From a virus (taxonomy: Duplodnaviria; Heunggongvirae; Uroviricota; Caudoviricetes), in the IMG/VR virus record IMGVR_UViG_2681813205_000009: a stretch of DNA of 6,274 bases, one strand, 5' to 3'. The translations under genes were made by a program, and so were the position numbers. Positions 1 through 6,274 of the stretch are shown here, in pieces. Under the pieces are notes generated by a model. It saw only the letters and a program-made list of their open reading frames with translations, ran no database searches and was not told where the DNA came from. The stretch's first letter is position 1, and each line of letters begins with the position of its first letter.

Positions 1-151
1 AGGTAACCGCCTCCCCTTTTTCATTCAGCTCATTGCAGAAAAAATACCGCTCACCACCCTGTACCGTCAGGTCGATTTCCCAGAGTACCACCCGCGGTGA
101 CTGCTCTGATTTAACCGACTCGTTCAGGCTTTCTTCATGAATATTCTGCAT
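1..151 (-). CDS. L: Minor tail protein L, N-terminal ~50 codons only (gene continues beyond the window's left edge)
   Basis: Manual minus-strand translation from ATG at 151..149 gives MQNIHEESLNESVKSEQSPRVVLWEIDLTVQGGERYFFCNELNEKGEAVT, closely matching the N-terminus of lambda gpL as I recall it (MQDIRQETLNE...VVLWEIDLTEVGGERYFFCNEQNEKGEPVT). The start overlaps the M stop in an ATGA arrangement. Not in the ORF track because it is truncated. Confidence 0.85.
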   Translation of the reverse strand, partial: MQNIHEESLNESVKSEQSPRVVLWEIDLTVQGGERYFFCNELNEKGEAVT

Positions 152-492
152 CAGTTCACCACCTGCTCAATCGTACAGCTGAAATCACTGTACCGGGCGT
201 TATCCGTGACGCTCCACTCCCGGCACACCACCCTCACCGTCCGGTTATGTTTCGGCGGTCGCCACAAAAAGGCACGGTAACCACCATGCCAGGATAAAAA
301 TTCATCCAGCCAGCGCCGGGTTGACTCATCCGTCACCCGGAACACCGCCTGAAACGTCTTCAGTTGAGGATTCAGCCCTGTGGGGCGACGCTGTTCATAA
401 CCGTCACCAAACCGTACCCTCGCCACCGACGGTTTCTCACTCACCTGCATCCCTTCACGCGGGACCAGATGCAGCGTTTTTATCTCAGCCAC
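151..492 (-). CDS. M: Minor tail protein M (113 aa)
   Basis: ORF track 151..492(-). Clear similarity to recalled lambda gpM (VRFGDGY, LKT, HGG..FLW.PP, C-terminal EQVVN). The start is GTG at 492..490, with an in-frame TGA immediately upstream so no ATG extension is possible. GGAGGAA Shine-Dalgarno lies about 7 nt upstream. Overlaps the tape measure stop by 8 nt (GTGGCTGA). Confidence 0.9.
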   Translation of the reverse strand: MAEIKTLHLVPREGMQVSEKPSVARVRFGDGYEQRRPTGLNPQLKTFQAVFRVTDESTRRWLDEFLSWHGGYRAFLWRPPKHNRTVRVVCREWSVTDNARYSDFSCTIEQVVN

Positions 493-3400
493 TCAGCATT
501 CCTCCGTCACGTCGCATGGACAGCATCACCGCCTGCACCCGCTGGTCAATCAGCTGCACAAGACTGCCTGCCGCCTCCGGCCCTATCTGGCCATTAGCCC
601 CGTCATTCTGAATGGCGATGTGGTAGACCGGGGAATACACCAGACCGGCACTGCCGTTCATACTGCCCACCGCGCGTACGCCCAGCGAGCCATCCGCCGC
701 CCGGGTCAGGGGCATAATGGCTTCAGGACCGGCCTCCCCCATCAGTCCCGCCCCTTTTGCAAAGGCAAAGTACGTGGGCGTATCCACAATACTGTTGCTG
801 TACGCACTCAGGTTTGCCGAGGTATACACGCCGCCTTTTGCATTGGCCACCGCCCCGCCCAGCCAGTCACCAATGCTGCCGAGAAATCCTCCCGCACCGG
901 ACATACCGTTTGCCGCCGTCTTAATTCCGTTGACAATCGCGGCATTCATAAGAACTTTTGATATTTCCTGCAGCACTGATGAGGCCCAGCTGCGCCATTC
1001 CACTTTATTTCCGTTCAGCATCTCCGTGATGTTATTCACCATCCCTGAGATACCCTCCGTCGCAAGCTGTGCTGCCTGTGAGGCGTAATCGGACGCATTA
1101 TCCACCCAGTTACTGAATCCCTCCTGCAGCCCTTTCTGCCAGTCCGCACGCTGCACATCCGATTCGGCATAAAAGGCTGCCTGGTCCTTAAGGCGTTCGC
1201 TCAGATACTGCGCGTTCTGTGCCCGTGCCTGTCTGTAAAAATCCTCACTGATATCCCCGGTCTGATACTGAGACTGAAGGTCCGCATCCTTCTGGCGGAA
1301 GCTGTCGCGGATCTGCTGCAACTCCCGCATGCGTTCTCTGGCTCGTTCCCCCTGCCCGTACCCCAGCAGTTCAGCATCATTCGACGCACGCGCAGCCGCA
1401 TTCTCATTCTTCAGTGTCTCTTCCCGGGATCGCAACTGTTCCCGGATTTTTTGCTGGTCAATCAGGGCCGCATTACGCAGCAGCTCCTGCTTCTGCATCT
1501 CCGTCAGGGTTTTCAGTTCGCCCTGCGCAGTCTGGTATTTCAGCTTCGCCAGCTCTGTATTCTGACCCGCCAGTGCCAGTTGCTCTTTCTGCTGCTTCAG
1601 TAGCCGGGAAAAACTGTCTTCCGCTTTTTCCGTCTCTGATTTTCTACCCCGGGATTTAGGTTTGTTCGCCTCGTTATTACGCCAGGCTTCCAGAGCATTA
1701 CTGATATAACGCTGTCTCGCCTCCTGATACGAATCCCCCACAAAACCAAGGTCATCCGCCGCATACCCCAGCCGGGCACGCTCTTTTTCCTCCCCCTTCA
1801 GTCGGGACAGGGCCAGCTCACGTTCTGTTTTTGTCAGGGCGCTCTGCTGTTTATCATCCAGGGTGGCCTGCGGCAGCCGTAACGGTACATTCACCAGTCC
1901 CTGACGCTGCTGAAGCAGTTCATTCCCCAGCCCCAGCAGACGGTTGAATTCCGTATGCTGACCGTTCATAACCAGCATGGACTGGTACACCTTATTCTGC
2001 TCTGCCGCCTGCTGACGAATTAACGCCACACGACGGTCTTCCAGCCCGGCAAGCACATCCTGAATGGACTGCGCTTTTTCCTGCATCTGTGCCAGACGGG
2101 ACTGCTCAACGGCAAGCTGCTCTGTTGCCTGAGCAAGCCCTTCCGTTACGGTCTTCACCGAGGTCAGATGGTTTATCATGAATCCGTCACCGGTCGTCCA
2201 GCCCGGGTTCGCCAGAACATACTGATATCCTGCGATTTTTTCCTGCAGGGATTTCACCCGACTGGCCTGTTCATCAATCAGCCGGTTCTGCTCTGTCAGC
2301 GCCGCCCGTGTTCGTCCTTCATTATCTGAGGCTTCAGGCAAAGACATTGACGGCGTTTTATGCGCGATTTCATCTATCGTCAGTGCATACTGGCGCGCAG
2401 ACTCCCTGGCCTGCTCCTGATTCTGGTACAGCGTGTACCATGCTGCAGCCCCCAGCATCACCAGTCCGGGTACGCCACCAACCAGCCCCAGCGCACCGCT
2501 CATCAGACGTGAGCCCACCGCCGTTGTACTGTTCAGCGCATTCTGGGCGGCGCTTCTGGCAGCAATATTTCTGTTCAGGCGTTCCTGTGTGGCCGCCAGA
2601 CGGGCCTCTGCAGCAATCTGCATCTCCGTCCCGCGGGCTGCCGCCACGGCCTGCTGAGCACGGTACACGGCTGCCCTTGCCCGCGCCGTGGCAATCTGCG
2701 TTCCCCTGAACTGTGCTTCCGCCAGTGCCACTTCATTACGTGCTGCCGTCACAAGTCCTGCCGTGGCAGACACCGCTCCGGAGGCCATATTGCCAAAGTA
2801 CCGGGCAACCCCGACGGCAACCAGCGCGCCCACGGCTGTTGCCACATTATCAATCTGTCCGGCAACACCGTTCAGCATGCCGGAGAGCGTTTTTGTCACC
2901 CCGCTGGCCTCATTCGCACCGCCCACCCAGGCCATAAAGGCGTTTTCCACCTTTGTGATACTACTGGAAACCGTTTCCGGCATGGCCGCATATTCATCAC
3001 GTAATATCCCCAGCTGGCTGATTAACGCGGGGACCACTTTATCCGCTGTCAGTTTTCCGTCATCCGCCATTGCCTTCAGATCTTTACGGGCCACGCCCAT
3101 ACCCGCAGCCAGTGCACGTACGATCCGGTCACCACTTTCATTGACCGAATTAAATTCCTCACCGCGTAACACACCCTGTGCCAGCGCCTGGCTGAACTGG
3201 GTGATCACCGAGCCCGCCTCTGCCGTACTGGCACCGGAGATTTTCAGCCCCGTGGAAATGGCCTCCGTCACCTTCAGCACATCATCAGCACTGTAACCAT
3301 ATTCACGCATTGAGGCTGCCGAGCGGGCAAACAGGGCCGCATTATCTGAAAATGCCGTGCCCGTCCGCTGACTGATATCCATCAGCACTTTCTGTGATGA

Positions 3401-3727
3401 CGAAAATTCATCAGATGACTGCGACGCCTGTTTCAGACGGGCATTCACGGAACTCCACTCATCAGCCAGTGAAATCAGGTGTCCGGTGGCAAAGGCACCG
3501 GCAAATGCGCCAGCCATTCCGACAGCAGAACCGCGAATTTCCGTCAACTGGCTGTTCAGTTCTGCCAGGGCACGTCGCTGCTCCCGGGCTGCCGCAGCGG
3601 CCTGACGCCCGCCATTCTGCAGGGTCCGGTAATATTCACTGCCCATACGGGAAGCACGCTGGAGCTCCGACTGGAATGACTGTGAATTTGCCGAAATTTT
3701 GATAATCAGTTCACGTAACGTCGCCAT
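485..3727 (-). CDS. H: Tail tape measure protein (1080 aa)
   Basis: Longest ORF in the window, positioned between the G-T chaperone genes and M. Ala/Gln/Arg-rich, predicted alpha-helical central region; hydrophobic Gly/Ala-rich segments (e.g. LMSGALGLVGGVPGLVMLGAAAWYTLY). The C-terminal tail (NDGANGQIGPEAAG...RRDGGMLSG) resembles the recalled lambda gpH C-terminus (NNDGTNGQIGPAAL...MRDGGLFSG). The N-terminal ~250 aa looks like a generic tape-measure N-terminal domain rather than lambda H. GAAAGG Shine-Dalgarno precedes the ATG at 3727. Confidence 0.95.
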   Translation of the reverse strand: MATLRELIIKISANSQSFQSELQRASRMGSEYYRTLQNGGRQAAAAAREQRRALAELNSQLTEIRGSAVGMAGAFAGAFATGHLISLADEWSSVNARLKQASQSSDEFSSSQKVLMDISQRTGTAFSDNAALFARSAASMREYGYSADDVLKVTEAISTGLKISGASTAEAGSVITQFSQALAQGVLRGEEFNSVNESGDRIVRALAAGMGVARKDLKAMADDGKLTADKVVPALISQLGILRDEYAAMPETVSSSITKVENAFMAWVGGANEASGVTKTLSGMLNGVAGQIDNVATAVGALVAVGVARYFGNMASGAVSATAGLVTAARNEVALAEAQFRGTQIATARARAAVYRAQQAVAAARGTEMQIAAEARLAATQERLNRNIAARSAAQNALNSTTAVGSRLMSGALGLVGGVPGLVMLGAAAWYTLYQNQEQARESARQYALTIDEIAHKTPSMSLPEASDNEGRTRAALTEQNRLIDEQASRVKSLQEKIAGYQYVLANPGWTTGDGFMINHLTSVKTVTEGLAQATEQLAVEQSRLAQMQEKAQSIQDVLAGLEDRRVALIRQQAAEQNKVYQSMLVMNGQHTEFNRLLGLGNELLQQRQGLVNVPLRLPQATLDDKQQSALTKTERELALSRLKGEEKERARLGYAADDLGFVGDSYQEARQRYISNALEAWRNNEANKPKSRGRKSETEKAEDSFSRLLKQQKEQLALAGQNTELAKLKYQTAQGELKTLTEMQKQELLRNAALIDQQKIREQLRSREETLKNENAAARASNDAELLGYGQGERARERMRELQQIRDSFRQKDADLQSQYQTGDISEDFYRQARAQNAQYLSERLKDQAAFYAESDVQRADWQKGLQEGFSNWVDNASDYASQAAQLATEGISGMVNNITEMLNGNKVEWRSWASSVLQEISKVLMNAAIVNGIKTAANGMSGAGGFLGSIGDWLGGAVANAKGGVYTSANLSAYSNSIVDTPTYFAFAKGAGLMGEAGPEAIMPLTRAADGSLGVRAVGSMNGSAGLVYSPVYHIAIQNDGANGQIGPEAAGSLVQLIDQRVQAVMLSMRRDGGMLSG

Positions 3728-3743
3728 TCACCTTTCTCCGGGC

Positions 3744-3768
3744 AAAAAAACCTGCCACAGCAGGTTTT
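3744..3768 (-). terminator. Terminator-like hairpin in the T-H intergenic region (possibly bidirectional)
   Basis: Minus strand reads AAACCTGC-TGTG-GCAGGTTT followed by TTTTTTTGCC: an 8-bp stem with a 5-bp GC core (plus-strand arms 3751..3755 and 3760..3764), a 4-nt loop and a T-run. It sits in the 50-nt gap between the T-frame stop (3778) and the tape measure start (3727). Confidence 0.45.
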
Positions 3769-3777
3769 CATCATTAT

Positions 3778-4457
3778 TTATGACATTGCTGCAAAGCTCA
3801 GCGCGTCTTCCAGCGCCGCAAACGGATCTGACTCCACTTTATCCTCATCCTCGCCCCAGCAGAGCATGGCGTCCTCCAGTGAAACATTCATCCCCTGCGC
3901 CCCGAAAACCGCTTTCACGATCTGCGCATTACGGATATCCCCGCGCTCATCGCCCAGCGGGGACACCCTGTCGAACTCCATCCACATCATCGCCTCGCTC
4001 GCACTCAGACTGTGGCCCAGTTCGGATAAGGTGCGCCCCAGACGGAGCGCAAGTCGCATCAGAAAGCGAATTTCCGGGCGGGCTACTTTTTTCTGGCCGA
4101 CTCTGCATCAGCGATCAGTTCCAGTGCCTGACGCAGCAACCGGGCATGTACCGGACCATAGACGGCCAGCACCTGCTCACGGTCGTCCGGAGTGAACACC
4201 CGCTGCAGATCCGTATCACACAGGACATCGCAGAACAGCGTCACATCCGCTTCCAGGTTACGGCGGGTTTTCGCCACCACCGACAGGGTATCGTCATCCT
4301 CTCCATCACCATTGAGCACTTCCTGCCACAGATACCAGGCCTCTGCCGAAGGCTCCCGCAGCACCACGCTGACATTACCCCATTCCGGCACCTTCACCGT
4401 TTTATGACGAAACCCTGACAGTCTGGCCAGCGCCAGCGTTTTCAGATCCTTTTTCAT
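3778..4457 (-). CDS. Tail assembly chaperone G-T fusion made by -1 programmed ribosomal frameshift (about 226 aa)
   Basis: The G frame ends ...ARKK-TAG at 4083..4085. Slipping -1 at A_AAA_AAG (4086..4092) continues as VARPEIRFLMRLALRLGRTLSELGH..., which is exactly the ORF-track T-frame ORF 3778..4059. The T frame has no ribosome-binding site or independent context of its own. Position between major tail and tape measure genes matches the conserved G/GT arrangement of long-tailed phages. Confidence 0.8.
4083..4457 (-). CDS. Tail assembly chaperone G (about 124 aa from ATG 4457; the track ORF extends to 4505)
   Basis: ORF track 4083..4505(-). I prefer the in-frame ATG at 4457 (MKKDLKTLALARL...): it lies 14 nt after the major tail stop and is preceded by AAGGGGA. 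The 4505 start would overlap the major tail gene by 34 nt and add an Arg-rich leader. Acidic segment (NGDGEDDD) and terminal slippery heptamer are typical of G-like chaperones. Confidence 0.8.
   Translation of the reverse strand: MKKDLKTLALARLSGFRHKTVKVPEWGNVSVVLREPSAEAWYLWQEVLNGDGEDDDTLSVVAKTRRNLEADVTLFCDVLCDTDLQRVFTPDDREQVLAVYGPVHARLLRQALELIADAESARKK
4086..4092 (-). other. -1 programmed frameshift slippery heptamer A_AAA_AAG
   Basis: Minus strand reads GCC AGA AAA AAG TAG. The heptamer A AAA AAG (the same motif as the E. coli dnaX shift site) sits immediately before the G stop, and the -1 frame stays open for 102 codons to 3778. Confidence 0.8.
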
Positions 4458-4471
4458 GATGACCCATCCCC

Positions 4472-5188
4472 TTATCCGGCGGCTGCGCTCACTGTCACGG
4501 TGCATTCAACAGACGTCACACTCTGTGCTTTCTCTGCCGAATCGGTCACCACGCAGGTATATTTCCCCGCATCAGCGGACTGCGCACCTGGCTTACTGAA
4601 GGTGTCTGTCGTCTGCCCGTCAACCGGCTGACCATCCTTCTTCCAGGCGTATTTATACGGCGGCGTTCCCCCGTTGGCACTGACTGACATTGTCAGCAGC
4701 GCACCTGTATTCACGGTAAGTGTTTTATCCAGATTTTTCACAAACGCCAGCGGTACCACAAAGGACACCGGTTTGCCTTTCATACGCAGTGAAAACGTTG
4801 CTGCCACCACGCCGTTGGTACCGGATGACCAGGTGTGCTGACGCACTTCCGCCAGGAACTTAAAGCCCTTACCGGACGGAAACAGCACCTTAAACGCATA
4901 CAACGCGTCATTGTCATAGGCATCACGCAGGGCGTTCTGGGCCTGATTCAGATAAAAATTACCCGACATGGAAATCTCAGACGACGCCCCCAGACCGTTG
5001 ATGTTCTCCTGCTCTGTGGAGCAGAGCGTGGTCACATCAATATCCTGTTTCTGACCGGCGGTGAACTGGACTTCCTTGATGGTGCAGTCCAGGCGCAGAT
5101 ATTCCGCCTTATCCATAGTTTCAGCAGTCGCCGGGGCAGATGAAATCATCACCTGCGTCAGCTGTGAGCGTTCATACAAAGCAGACAT
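4472..5188 (-). CDS. Major tail (tube) protein with C-terminal Ig-like domain (238 aa)
   Basis: ORF track 4472..5188(-). Strong AGGAGG Shine-Dalgarno 4 nt upstream of ATG 5188. Lies immediately upstream of G/G-T, the conserved major-tail position. The C-terminal ~80 aa carry an immunoglobulin-type motif (YKYAWKKDGQPV...DAGKYTCVVTD), as seen in Ig-like decorations of phage major tail proteins. Confidence 0.88.
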   Translation of the reverse strand: MSALYERSQLTQVMISSAPATAETMDKAEYLRLDCTIKEVQFTAGQKQDIDVTTLCSTEQENINGLGASSEISMSGNFYLNQAQNALRDAYDNDALYAFKVLFPSGKGFKFLAEVRQHTWSSGTNGVVAATFSLRMKGKPVSFVVPLAFVKNLDKTLTVNTGALLTMSVSANGGTPPYKYAWKKDGQPVDGQTTDTFSKPGAQSADAGKYTCVVTDSAEKAQSVTSVECTVTVSAAAG

Positions 5189-5204
5189 TCTGCCTCCTGA
5201 TAAT

Positions 5205-5225
5205 AAAAAACCCGCACGCGGCGGG
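5205..5225 (-). terminator. Terminator-like hairpin in the intergenic region upstream of the major tail gene
   Basis: Minus strand reads CCCGC-CGCGT-GCGGG followed directly by TTTTTTATTA: a 5-bp all-GC stem (plus-strand arms 5211..5215 and 5221..5225), 5-nt loop and T6 run, about 17 nt upstream of the major tail AGGAGG. Confidence 0.4.
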
Positions 5226-5254
5226 GTATGGGTTTTGTAGAAAAAAAGAAAAAG

Positions 5255-5599
5255 TCACACCGTGACCTGAAACTCCAGGGTTGCACGGTAACAGCGGTTT
5301 TCCGGAATATAGTCCTGCATTTCACTGACGGATCCCGGGGCCAGCAGCATTATGGCTTCACGGGCGTCCTGACGTATCTGACGCGCCTGCGTCACAGTCC
5401 CGGCATAAACGTCTATCTGCACCGACACTGAGGACTCCGCCTGCCCGCCCATCACGTCCGCCGACACCGATGAAATCAGGCTGAAAACCACCCACGGAAG
5501 CGCCACCGACGGCCTGCCATCCAGCAGGGGGACCACATACGGGTACACCTGCCCGCCGGCAAGATGCGCCAGATGAGGATACAAATCCGCCTCCGTCAT
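5255..5599 (-). CDS. Tail terminator / tail completion protein, lambda U position (114 aa)
   Basis: ORF track 5255..5599(-). Size and position (immediately upstream of the major tail gene) match the tail-terminator slot. The N-terminal pattern (VYP...DGRP...PWVVF) resembles what I recall of DUF3168-type tail terminator proteins. Start ATG overlaps the upstream stop as ATGA. Family assignment is from memory, not a search. Confidence 0.65.
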   Translation of the reverse strand: MTEADLYPHLAHLAGGQVYPYVVPLLDGRPSVALPWVVFSLISSVSADVMGGQAESSVSVQIDVYAGTVTQARQIRQDAREAIMLLAPGSVSEMQDYIPENRCYRATLEFQVTV

Positions 5600-6042
5600 C
5601 GTCTCAGTACCTCATCAATGGCCCGGTTCATCCGAGCAATCGCCACTTGCGCTGCCTGTTCACTGCGCACATCAAACGCCGGACGCACAAACGGGTGCGG
5701 TGGCATATTCACGGTCCCCATTTCCACAAACCGCCAGTAGAAAGCGTTGCGCGGGTTATCCGCCTTCATGGTGTTATCGCTGTTACCGGTGTCCGGATTA
5801 ACACCCCGGATATGCACACCGGATTCCATCCCGCCATCGCGGGAGCGCCGGGAAAGGACCACCACATTGCGGCGCAGTTTTCCCCTGCGTACCGGTGCCC
5901 GTGACACCACTTCTTCTTTCAGCACATTCGCACCCGCACGGGTTGCCTCACGCAGCACCCGGTTATTTTCCGCACCACTCAGAAGCTGCAAATCGCGGCT
6001 GATGTCCTCCAGCCCCGAAAAATCCAGCAGGGTTTCGATCAT
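5596..6042 (-). CDS. HK97 gp10-family tail-component protein, lambda Z position (148 aa)
   Basis: ORF track 5596..6042(-). GGGAGG Shine-Dalgarno 7 nt upstream of ATG 6042. Conserved-looking C-terminal segment (AFYWRFVEMGT...PPHPFVRPAFD) resembles the HK97 gp10 family as I recall it. Positioned two genes upstream of the major tail gene. Confidence 0.7.
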   Translation of the reverse strand: MIETLLDFSGLEDISRDLQLLSGAENNRVLREATRAGANVLKEEVVSRAPVRRGKLRRNVVVLSRRSRDGGMESGVHIRGVNPDTGNSDNTMKADNPRNAFYWRFVEMGTVNMPPHPFVRPAFDVRSEQAAQVAIARMNRAIDEVLRR

Positions 6043-6184
6043 TTTTCACCTCCCAGCCGACAGAGAATTTCCAGACGTCCGCCGGTCGCATCCGGCACGG
6101 GCAGCCCGACAACGTTCAGGATCCGGTCACGCCAGGGACCACTCAGCACATGAAGTCGTGACGCTGCCGTCGATACTCCTGATT

Positions 6185-6214
6185 ATGATATCTTTTTAAC
6201 GGATAATCTGTCAA
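6185..6214 (-). promoter_or_regulatory. Candidate sigma70-type promoter reading into the tail genes
   Basis: Minus strand has TTGACA (complement of 6214..6209), an 18-nt spacer, then TATCAT (complement of 6190..6185): a perfect -35 and a 5/6 -10. It lies inside the only AT-rich island of an otherwise GC-rich window. Predicted start near 6178, about 136 nt upstream of the ATG at 6042. Confidence 0.35.
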
Positions 6215-6274
6215 ATCTTACTGACTCTGGCTTGCTTTTAAGCGATGATGAGTCTGGCGTACGGGCAATTGGCC
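6186..6274 (-). CDS. Possible 3' end of an upstream gene (C-terminal ~30 codons, unknown product)
   Basis: Only one minus-strand frame is open across 6186..6274, ending at TAA 6185..6183 with ...PDSSSLKSKPESVRFDRLSVKKIS. The composition is AT-rich and low-complexity, so coding status is doubtful. Not in the ORF track. Confidence 0.2.

Follow-up and report, generated by a model that had tools for sequence, protein, structure and literature searches.

The window analysed here, namely the whole stretch of 6,274 nucleotides, has the same extent, end to end, as the draft contig JXWM01000211.1 (assembly GCA_000932215.1, 6,274 bp), and position 6274 is therefore the end of a contig. A phage tail module, encoded on the minus strand, is followed in it by a piece of the host gene rcsD on the plus strand, and the features are as follows.

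2..151, minus strand: L, start of the gene (Pfam and RefSeq annotation)
151..492, minus strand: minor tail protein M (Pfam and RefSeq annotation)
485..3727, minus strand: tape measure (Pfam and RefSeq annotation)
3778..4059, minus strand: T (Pfam and RefSeq annotation)
4083..4457, minus strand: tail assembly chaperone (Pfam and RefSeq annotation)
4472..5188, minus strand: major tail subunit with an Ig-like domain (Pfam and RefSeq annotation)
5255..5599, minus strand: gp17-like tail completion gene (Pfam, and RefSeq annotation of the colinear prophages)
5596..6042, minus strand: HK97 gp10-like (lambda Z-like) tail-completion/morphogenesis gene, nearest of the complete genes downstream of the joint
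6039..6170, minus strand: 3' remnant of the head-closure gene, the last 43 of 116 codons and the stop, with only an internal GTG as start
6171..6180, no strand: joint zone CGATACTCCT, which in alignment resembles the prophage and rcsD parents only loosely
6190..6185, minus strand: -10-like hexamer TATCAT, native antisense rcsD sequence over codons 732-734 (Y-D-I), in all E. coli
6214..6209, minus strand: -35-like hexamer TTGACA from the consensus scan, with two substitutions private to the contig
6175..6274, plus (sense) strand: fragment of rcsD (phosphotransferase RcsD), its reading frame running from codon 731 at 6181 to codon 761 at the contig end

The tail module and its intact relatives

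Positions 1..6174 were found to be colinear with lambdoid (Stx-type) prophages in 1,241 of the 5,426 complete E. coli genomes, with an identity of 98.5-99.0% over the whole length and up to 99.7% over 5600..6174, and 91 phage records, mostly of Stx1a/Stx2-converting phages and phage 2851, match likewise. The called genes of the contig hit the Pfam families PF04883, PF11367, PF06222, PF06223, PF09718 and PF05939, and together they form the colinear gene set of a lambdoid (HK97/lambda-like siphovirus) tail module. With the Stx-type prophages of E. coli O26/O103/O111/O145/O157 (e.g., phage 2851), the contig shares the gene order gp10-like, gp17-like, major tail, chaperone G/GT, tape measure, M and L at 98.5-99.7% identity, but it differs from them in lacking the connector, the portal and everything upstream of the 43-codon end of the head-closure gene.

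The homology to prophages always stops at 6174 (BLAST, with one gap), inside the head-closure gene. All 43 residues encoded by the remnant of this gene equal residues 74-116 of WP_001007905.1, the head-closure protein of the intact prophages, and its stop codon overlaps the next ATG (ATGA, 6042..6039). In the intact prophages the head-closure gene runs on to its full 116 codons, again with a 4-nt overlap with the gp10-like gene, and a scan of the homologous position found no promoter-like site on the coding strand. In the real phage, the tail genes would be expected to be read as part of one late operon, in which the ATGA would couple translation of the head-closure gene to that of the gp10-like gene. 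Across the phage side (1..6170), only 14 positions are unmatched by four reference prophages, and none of these falls in the first 500 nt.

Some further observations concern this module. A canonical -1 slippery heptamer, A_AAA_AAG (4086..4092, minus strand), directly precedes the chaperone stop codon (4085..4083) upstream of the T ORF; by its sequence and place, it would be the expected programmed frameshift site of the G/GT type of lambda-like tails. A terminator-like hairpin, CCCGC-CGCGT-GCGGG followed by T6 (5211..5225, minus strand; also 5252..5268), lies in the 66-nt gap between the gp17-like and major tail genes, some 20 nt before the start codon of the major tail gene (ATG, 5188), and is identical in an intact prophage (2612..2626 of the locus compared); inside a late operon, such a hairpin could be an antitermination-dependent checkpoint or a 5'-stabiliser of the mRNA. 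The exact 1,080-aa tape-measure protein occurs in this contig only, while its 90%-identity cluster has 21,432 members, and it may reflect ordinary mosaic variation or a consensus collapsed from near-identical prophage copies. Five colinear prophages of complete genomes were inspected further upstream, and each has its portal gene, beyond the head-tail connector, annotated as a frameshifted pseudogene, which may mean that many of the shared prophages are defective, that a programmed feature has gone unrecognised, or that the annotation has a systematic issue.

The rcsD fragment and its promoter-like hexamers

The GC content is 0.358 over 6170..6250 and 0.42 over 6175..6274, against 0.569 over 1..6174, and the 81-nt window of minimum GC (0.346) starts at 6173, with the runner-up elsewhere at 0.407 (3670). 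The preliminary description had reported an AT-rich island at 6170..6250; its low GC was borne out, while its bounds were not, since the patch truly spans from about 6175 to the contig end at 6274. The island carries no tRNA or att site (ARAGORN), and no known RNA family reached its gathering score anywhere in the window.

The island is a piece of host coding sequence. Positions 6181..6272 match rcsD in 5,374 of the 5,426 complete E. coli genomes with 88 of 92 positions identical, and they correspond to nt 2191-2282 of the 2,673-nt rcsD CDS, namely codons 731-761, placed antisense to the tail genes. The fragment is 89% identical to rcsD of Salmonella and 85% identical to that of Citrobacter and Klebsiella. 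Its frame is held through the contig tail without indels, giving the translation DYDIFLTDNLSNLTDSGLLLSDDESGVRAIG, to which DYDIFLTDNPSNLTASGLLLSDDESGVREIG is the wild-type RcsD counterpart; both nucleotide homology and a preserved frame therefore identify it as an rcsD fragment. It resembles E. coli rcsD (yojN, Rcs phosphorelay) in frame, in local GC and in the antisense TATCAT with its 18-nt spacer, but differs from it in that only about 100 nt are present here, with phage DNA replacing the upstream rcsD sequence, and in five (possibly eight) differences within the fragment, among them the two behind TTGACA. The corresponding stretch of wild-type E. coli rcsD has a GC of 0.413, and the low GC of the island is the local composition of rcsD. 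In a comparison of 6165..6274 with 50,697 phage records no meaningful match was obtained, nor was the rcsD segment of the island found in the viral contigs of IMG/VR; the island is thus not phage DNA recurring at a phage module boundary.

Two records titled Enterobacter hormaechei were also encountered, whose rcsD segment is identical or nearly identical to that of E. coli over the 135 nt shown, which suggests mislabelling, contamination or recent transfer. In PMC3762810, consulted for the position of the internal rcsB promoter, "prcsB" is the name of a plasmid.

The preliminary description had also pointed to a near-consensus sigma-70 promoter in the island, TTGACA-N18-TATCAT on the minus strand, aimed at the tail genes, and the consensus scan confirmed that this sequence is there. 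Read along the minus strand, the order is GTAAGAT, TTGACA, GATTATCCGTTAAAAAGA, TATCAT and then AATCAGGAG, which directs the hexamers at the gp10-like (Z-like) gene, 6042..5596. The hexamers match the sigma-70 consensus (TTGACA/TATAAT) at 11 of 12 positions with a spacing inside the 16-18 nt range, although the 18-nt spacer is suboptimal and the scan found no extended -10 TG, and they are the sole promoter-like site in the window. Among 1,000 dinucleotide-preserving shuffles of the window, the chance expectation of a match of at least 11/12 with a spacer of 16-18 nt was 0.027 per shuffled window, with 2.6% of the shuffles having one; such a match is therefore uncommon for a single window and unremarkable genome-wide, where it is expected many times over.

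Most of this site is native to the host gene. At the homologous position, the antisense strand of wild-type E. coli rcsD reads TAGACG-N18-TATCAT, a match of 9/12; the -10 and the spacer are native rcsD, and the perfect -35 is made by two substitutions, 6209 C->T and 6213 T->A, at a place where TAGACG stands in all E. coli and in the other Escherichia checked. The hexamers arise incidentally, from an AT-rich coding sequence seen on its antisense strand. A chance match in AT-rich DNA, which had been offered as one explanation of the site, thus came near the truth, with the refinement that the antisense strand of rcsD already holds nine of the twelve bases. The same latent 9/12 antisense site is seen in rcsD of E. 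coli O157:H7 (4005..4034 of the locus compared), where it is two substitutions short of near-consensus.

The substitutions are private to the contig tail. Over the 101 nt of 6174..6274 there are eight differences from E. coli rcsD, seven of which are transversions; three of the eight (6176, 6179 and 6180) precede the clean homology, and within it, from 6181 onward, there are five (6209, 6213, 6224, 6266 and 6273), three of which change an amino acid (P740L, A745D and E759A). The top identity among the 5,374 E. coli genomes being 88/92, the differences at 6209, 6213, 6224 and 6266 therefore occur in none of them, and the same four positions are invariant in E. albertii, E. ruysiae, E. whittamii, Salmonella, Citrobacter and Klebsiella; the fifth, 6273 G->C, is the state found in Salmonella, Citrobacter and Klebsiella. 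Of the residues affected, P740 and A745 are conserved in the other genera checked, and codon 759 is variable (E or K). The wild-type CCGTCTAATC stands unchanged in E. coli, E. albertii, E. ruysiae, E. whittamii and Escherichia sp. E1V33, and also in Salmonella, Citrobacter and Klebsiella aerogenes. A degenerate-pattern scan of 185,579 species representatives for rcsD with TGTCAA in another species returned 10 loci, none with the combination seen in the window, and these carry CCGTCTAATC in all but Siccibacter (CCGTCAAATC). The variant rcsD gave zero matches in the JGI metagenomes and in IMG/VR. A plasmid-borne rcsD paralogue was considered and rejected, as the matches in the plasmid collection are ordinary rcsD at 88/92, on mislabelled chromosomal or large replicons.

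Origin of the joint

Aligning the window with related prophages, as had been proposed for finding a recombination joint, did reveal one: the homology ends at 6174, and what it joins is rcsD. The earlier suggestion of a mosaic module junction therefore held in so far as there is a joint, and failed in so far as the partners are not two phages but phage DNA and host rcsD, or the two sides of an assembly chimera. By inspection, no IS end or adapter was recognisable at the joint. No match spans it in the 5,426 complete E. coli genomes, the phage records or IMG/VR, and the JGI metagenomes gave zero matches. The joint thus recurs in no independent genome searched, and the contig ends 100 nt past it instead of continuing into a unique flank.

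Based on these findings, we consider that the joint and the extra differences are probably an artefact of sequencing or assembly, a prophage contig bounded by repeats having been extended chimerically and on poor support: a lambdoid tail module, cut within the head-closure gene, would have been linked in the assembly to an internal, antisense piece of rcsD. In short-read drafts of prophage-rich genomes, contig ends can be chimeric or poorly supported. The present contig resembles such ends in being short and bounded by repeated prophage DNA, in having an unrelated end of about one read length in which private substitutions are locally raised, and in not continuing into unique DNA, but it departs from the pattern in that the other end of JXWM01000211.1 is clean. 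On this artefact reading, the organism would have no promoter here.

Several lines of evidence favour the artefact, and most of them weigh at the same time against a real joint. First, the contig halts 100 nt after the joint, although an assembler should continue easily through rcsD, rcsB and rcsC. Second, the tail is dense in private differences, whereas the phage side is clean. Third, seven of the eight differences are transversions, whereas transitions predominate in natural E. coli polymorphism, and four of the five differences in the clean homology sit at positions conserved across the enterobacterial genera checked. Fourth, the ages of the two sides do not agree: the phage side, up to 99.7% identical to known prophages, would imply a recent event, while the rcsD side is about 5-8% diverged, beyond the divergence of the other Escherichia species and without their variants. 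Fifth, 6171..6180 fits neither parent cleanly, and the joint occurs in no other genome searched. Counting against the artefact, the tail is free of indels and in the rcsD frame, as a real fragment would be, the left contig end shows no comparable cluster of errors, the differences do not rise steadily towards the contig end, and truncated prophages are many in STEC genomes, which makes a real deletion joint biologically possible.

A real joint is the tentative alternative, possible but on the whole doubtful. Here a strain-private deletion or illegitimate recombination would have removed the prophage head and early regions together with the chromosome up to about codon 730 of rcsD, leaving an orphan tail module beside a 3' fragment of rcsD, and later substitutions would have turned the 9/12 site into an 11/12 site. 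Besides the preserved frame, it is consistent with this that two genuine E. coli-type halves meet without an intervening IS element or adapter, that truncated lambdoid prophages are common, with up to 13 matching places per genome, and that such prophage regions have IS-disrupted or frameshifted neighbours. Non-promoter DNA commonly needs no more than one or two point mutations to become an active promoter (Yona et al., 2018; PMC5906472), and promoter birth of this kind would fit a real joint. The site does resemble the latent intragenic promoters of that study (Yona, Alm and Gore, 2018), in that two -35 substitutions convert a 9/12 antisense site into an 11/12 one, but unlike those promoters its substitutions are probably errors, and selection is without support. 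Under a real joint, transcription could plausibly start near 6178 from the 11/12 site and run through what is left of the head-closure gene into the tail genes; such a promoter would have arisen by accident at the scar of a deletion and would not be a signal that the phage had evolved for the purpose. Beyond the points already given, the real joint is opposed by the fact that site-specific integration alone cannot yield a junction between the head-closure gene and rcsD, and that the rcsD segment appears in no viral contig of IMG/VR.

It is most unlikely that only the link is artefactual while the rcsD variant is real, namely that an intact rcsD bearing the substitutions exists in the strain or in a contaminant. 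The in-frame tail and the 6273 G->C state shared with Salmonella, Citrobacter and Klebsiella would agree with such a variant, but it is present in none of the 5,374 E. coli genomes, none of the 185,579 species representatives and not in the JGI metagenomes, and it would carry three amino-acid changes, two of them (P740 and A745) at positions conserved in the other genera checked.

The reading with next to no probability is that of the preliminary description itself, an internal sigma-70 promoter of the phage's own, or a phage-phage mosaic joint, driving the tail genes apart from the late promoter: the 11/12 match, rare by chance in one window, oriented to the tail genes and set in a local AT-rich patch, had spoken for it, but the hexamers lie in host rcsD coding sequence with no match in the 50,697 phage records, and the island is absent from every related prophage and phage that keeps the flanking genes (1,241 E. 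coli genomes and 91 phage records); their head-closure gene runs on in its place. By the criterion set in the preliminary description, this refutes an internal promoter of the tail module, since relatives that keep the neighbouring genes do not keep the hexamers, and the further suggestion that the island serves expression in the lysogen state is unsupported.

Implications for the prophage and its host

The claimed internal phage promoter is not a real feature, and nothing at this locus falls outside known kinds. The case carries a caution, namely that an AT-rich "island" with a near-consensus promoter, when it lies at a window's edge, can prove to be a fragment of an unrelated host gene attached to a contig end, and that a "strong" -35 may rest on bases common to no other genome.

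If the joint is real, a prophage remnant peculiar to this strain would have inactivated rcsD, and its accidental promoter would be of modest interest. In a very unlikely extension of this reading, with both the joint and the substitutions real, an orphan lambda-type tail module (gp10-like through L and beyond) fused to the rcsD fragment would have gained a near-consensus constitutive promoter through two point mutations in that fragment. Were such a fusion true, the tail genes would be driven independently of Q antitermination, which could be a possible first step towards a domesticated flexible-tail particle (F-type tailocin-like), and of rcsD possibly only an Hpt remnant would be left, broadly like the rcsD frameshift variant of Yersinia pestis (PMC10191623).

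On the phage side the outcome is ordinary: the intact relatives have overlapping head-closure and tail-completion genes and show no internal promoter at this place. The late genes of lambda are transcribed from a single late promoter, pR', with antitermination by Q, and the arrangement of the intact relatives fits transcription as a single late operon.
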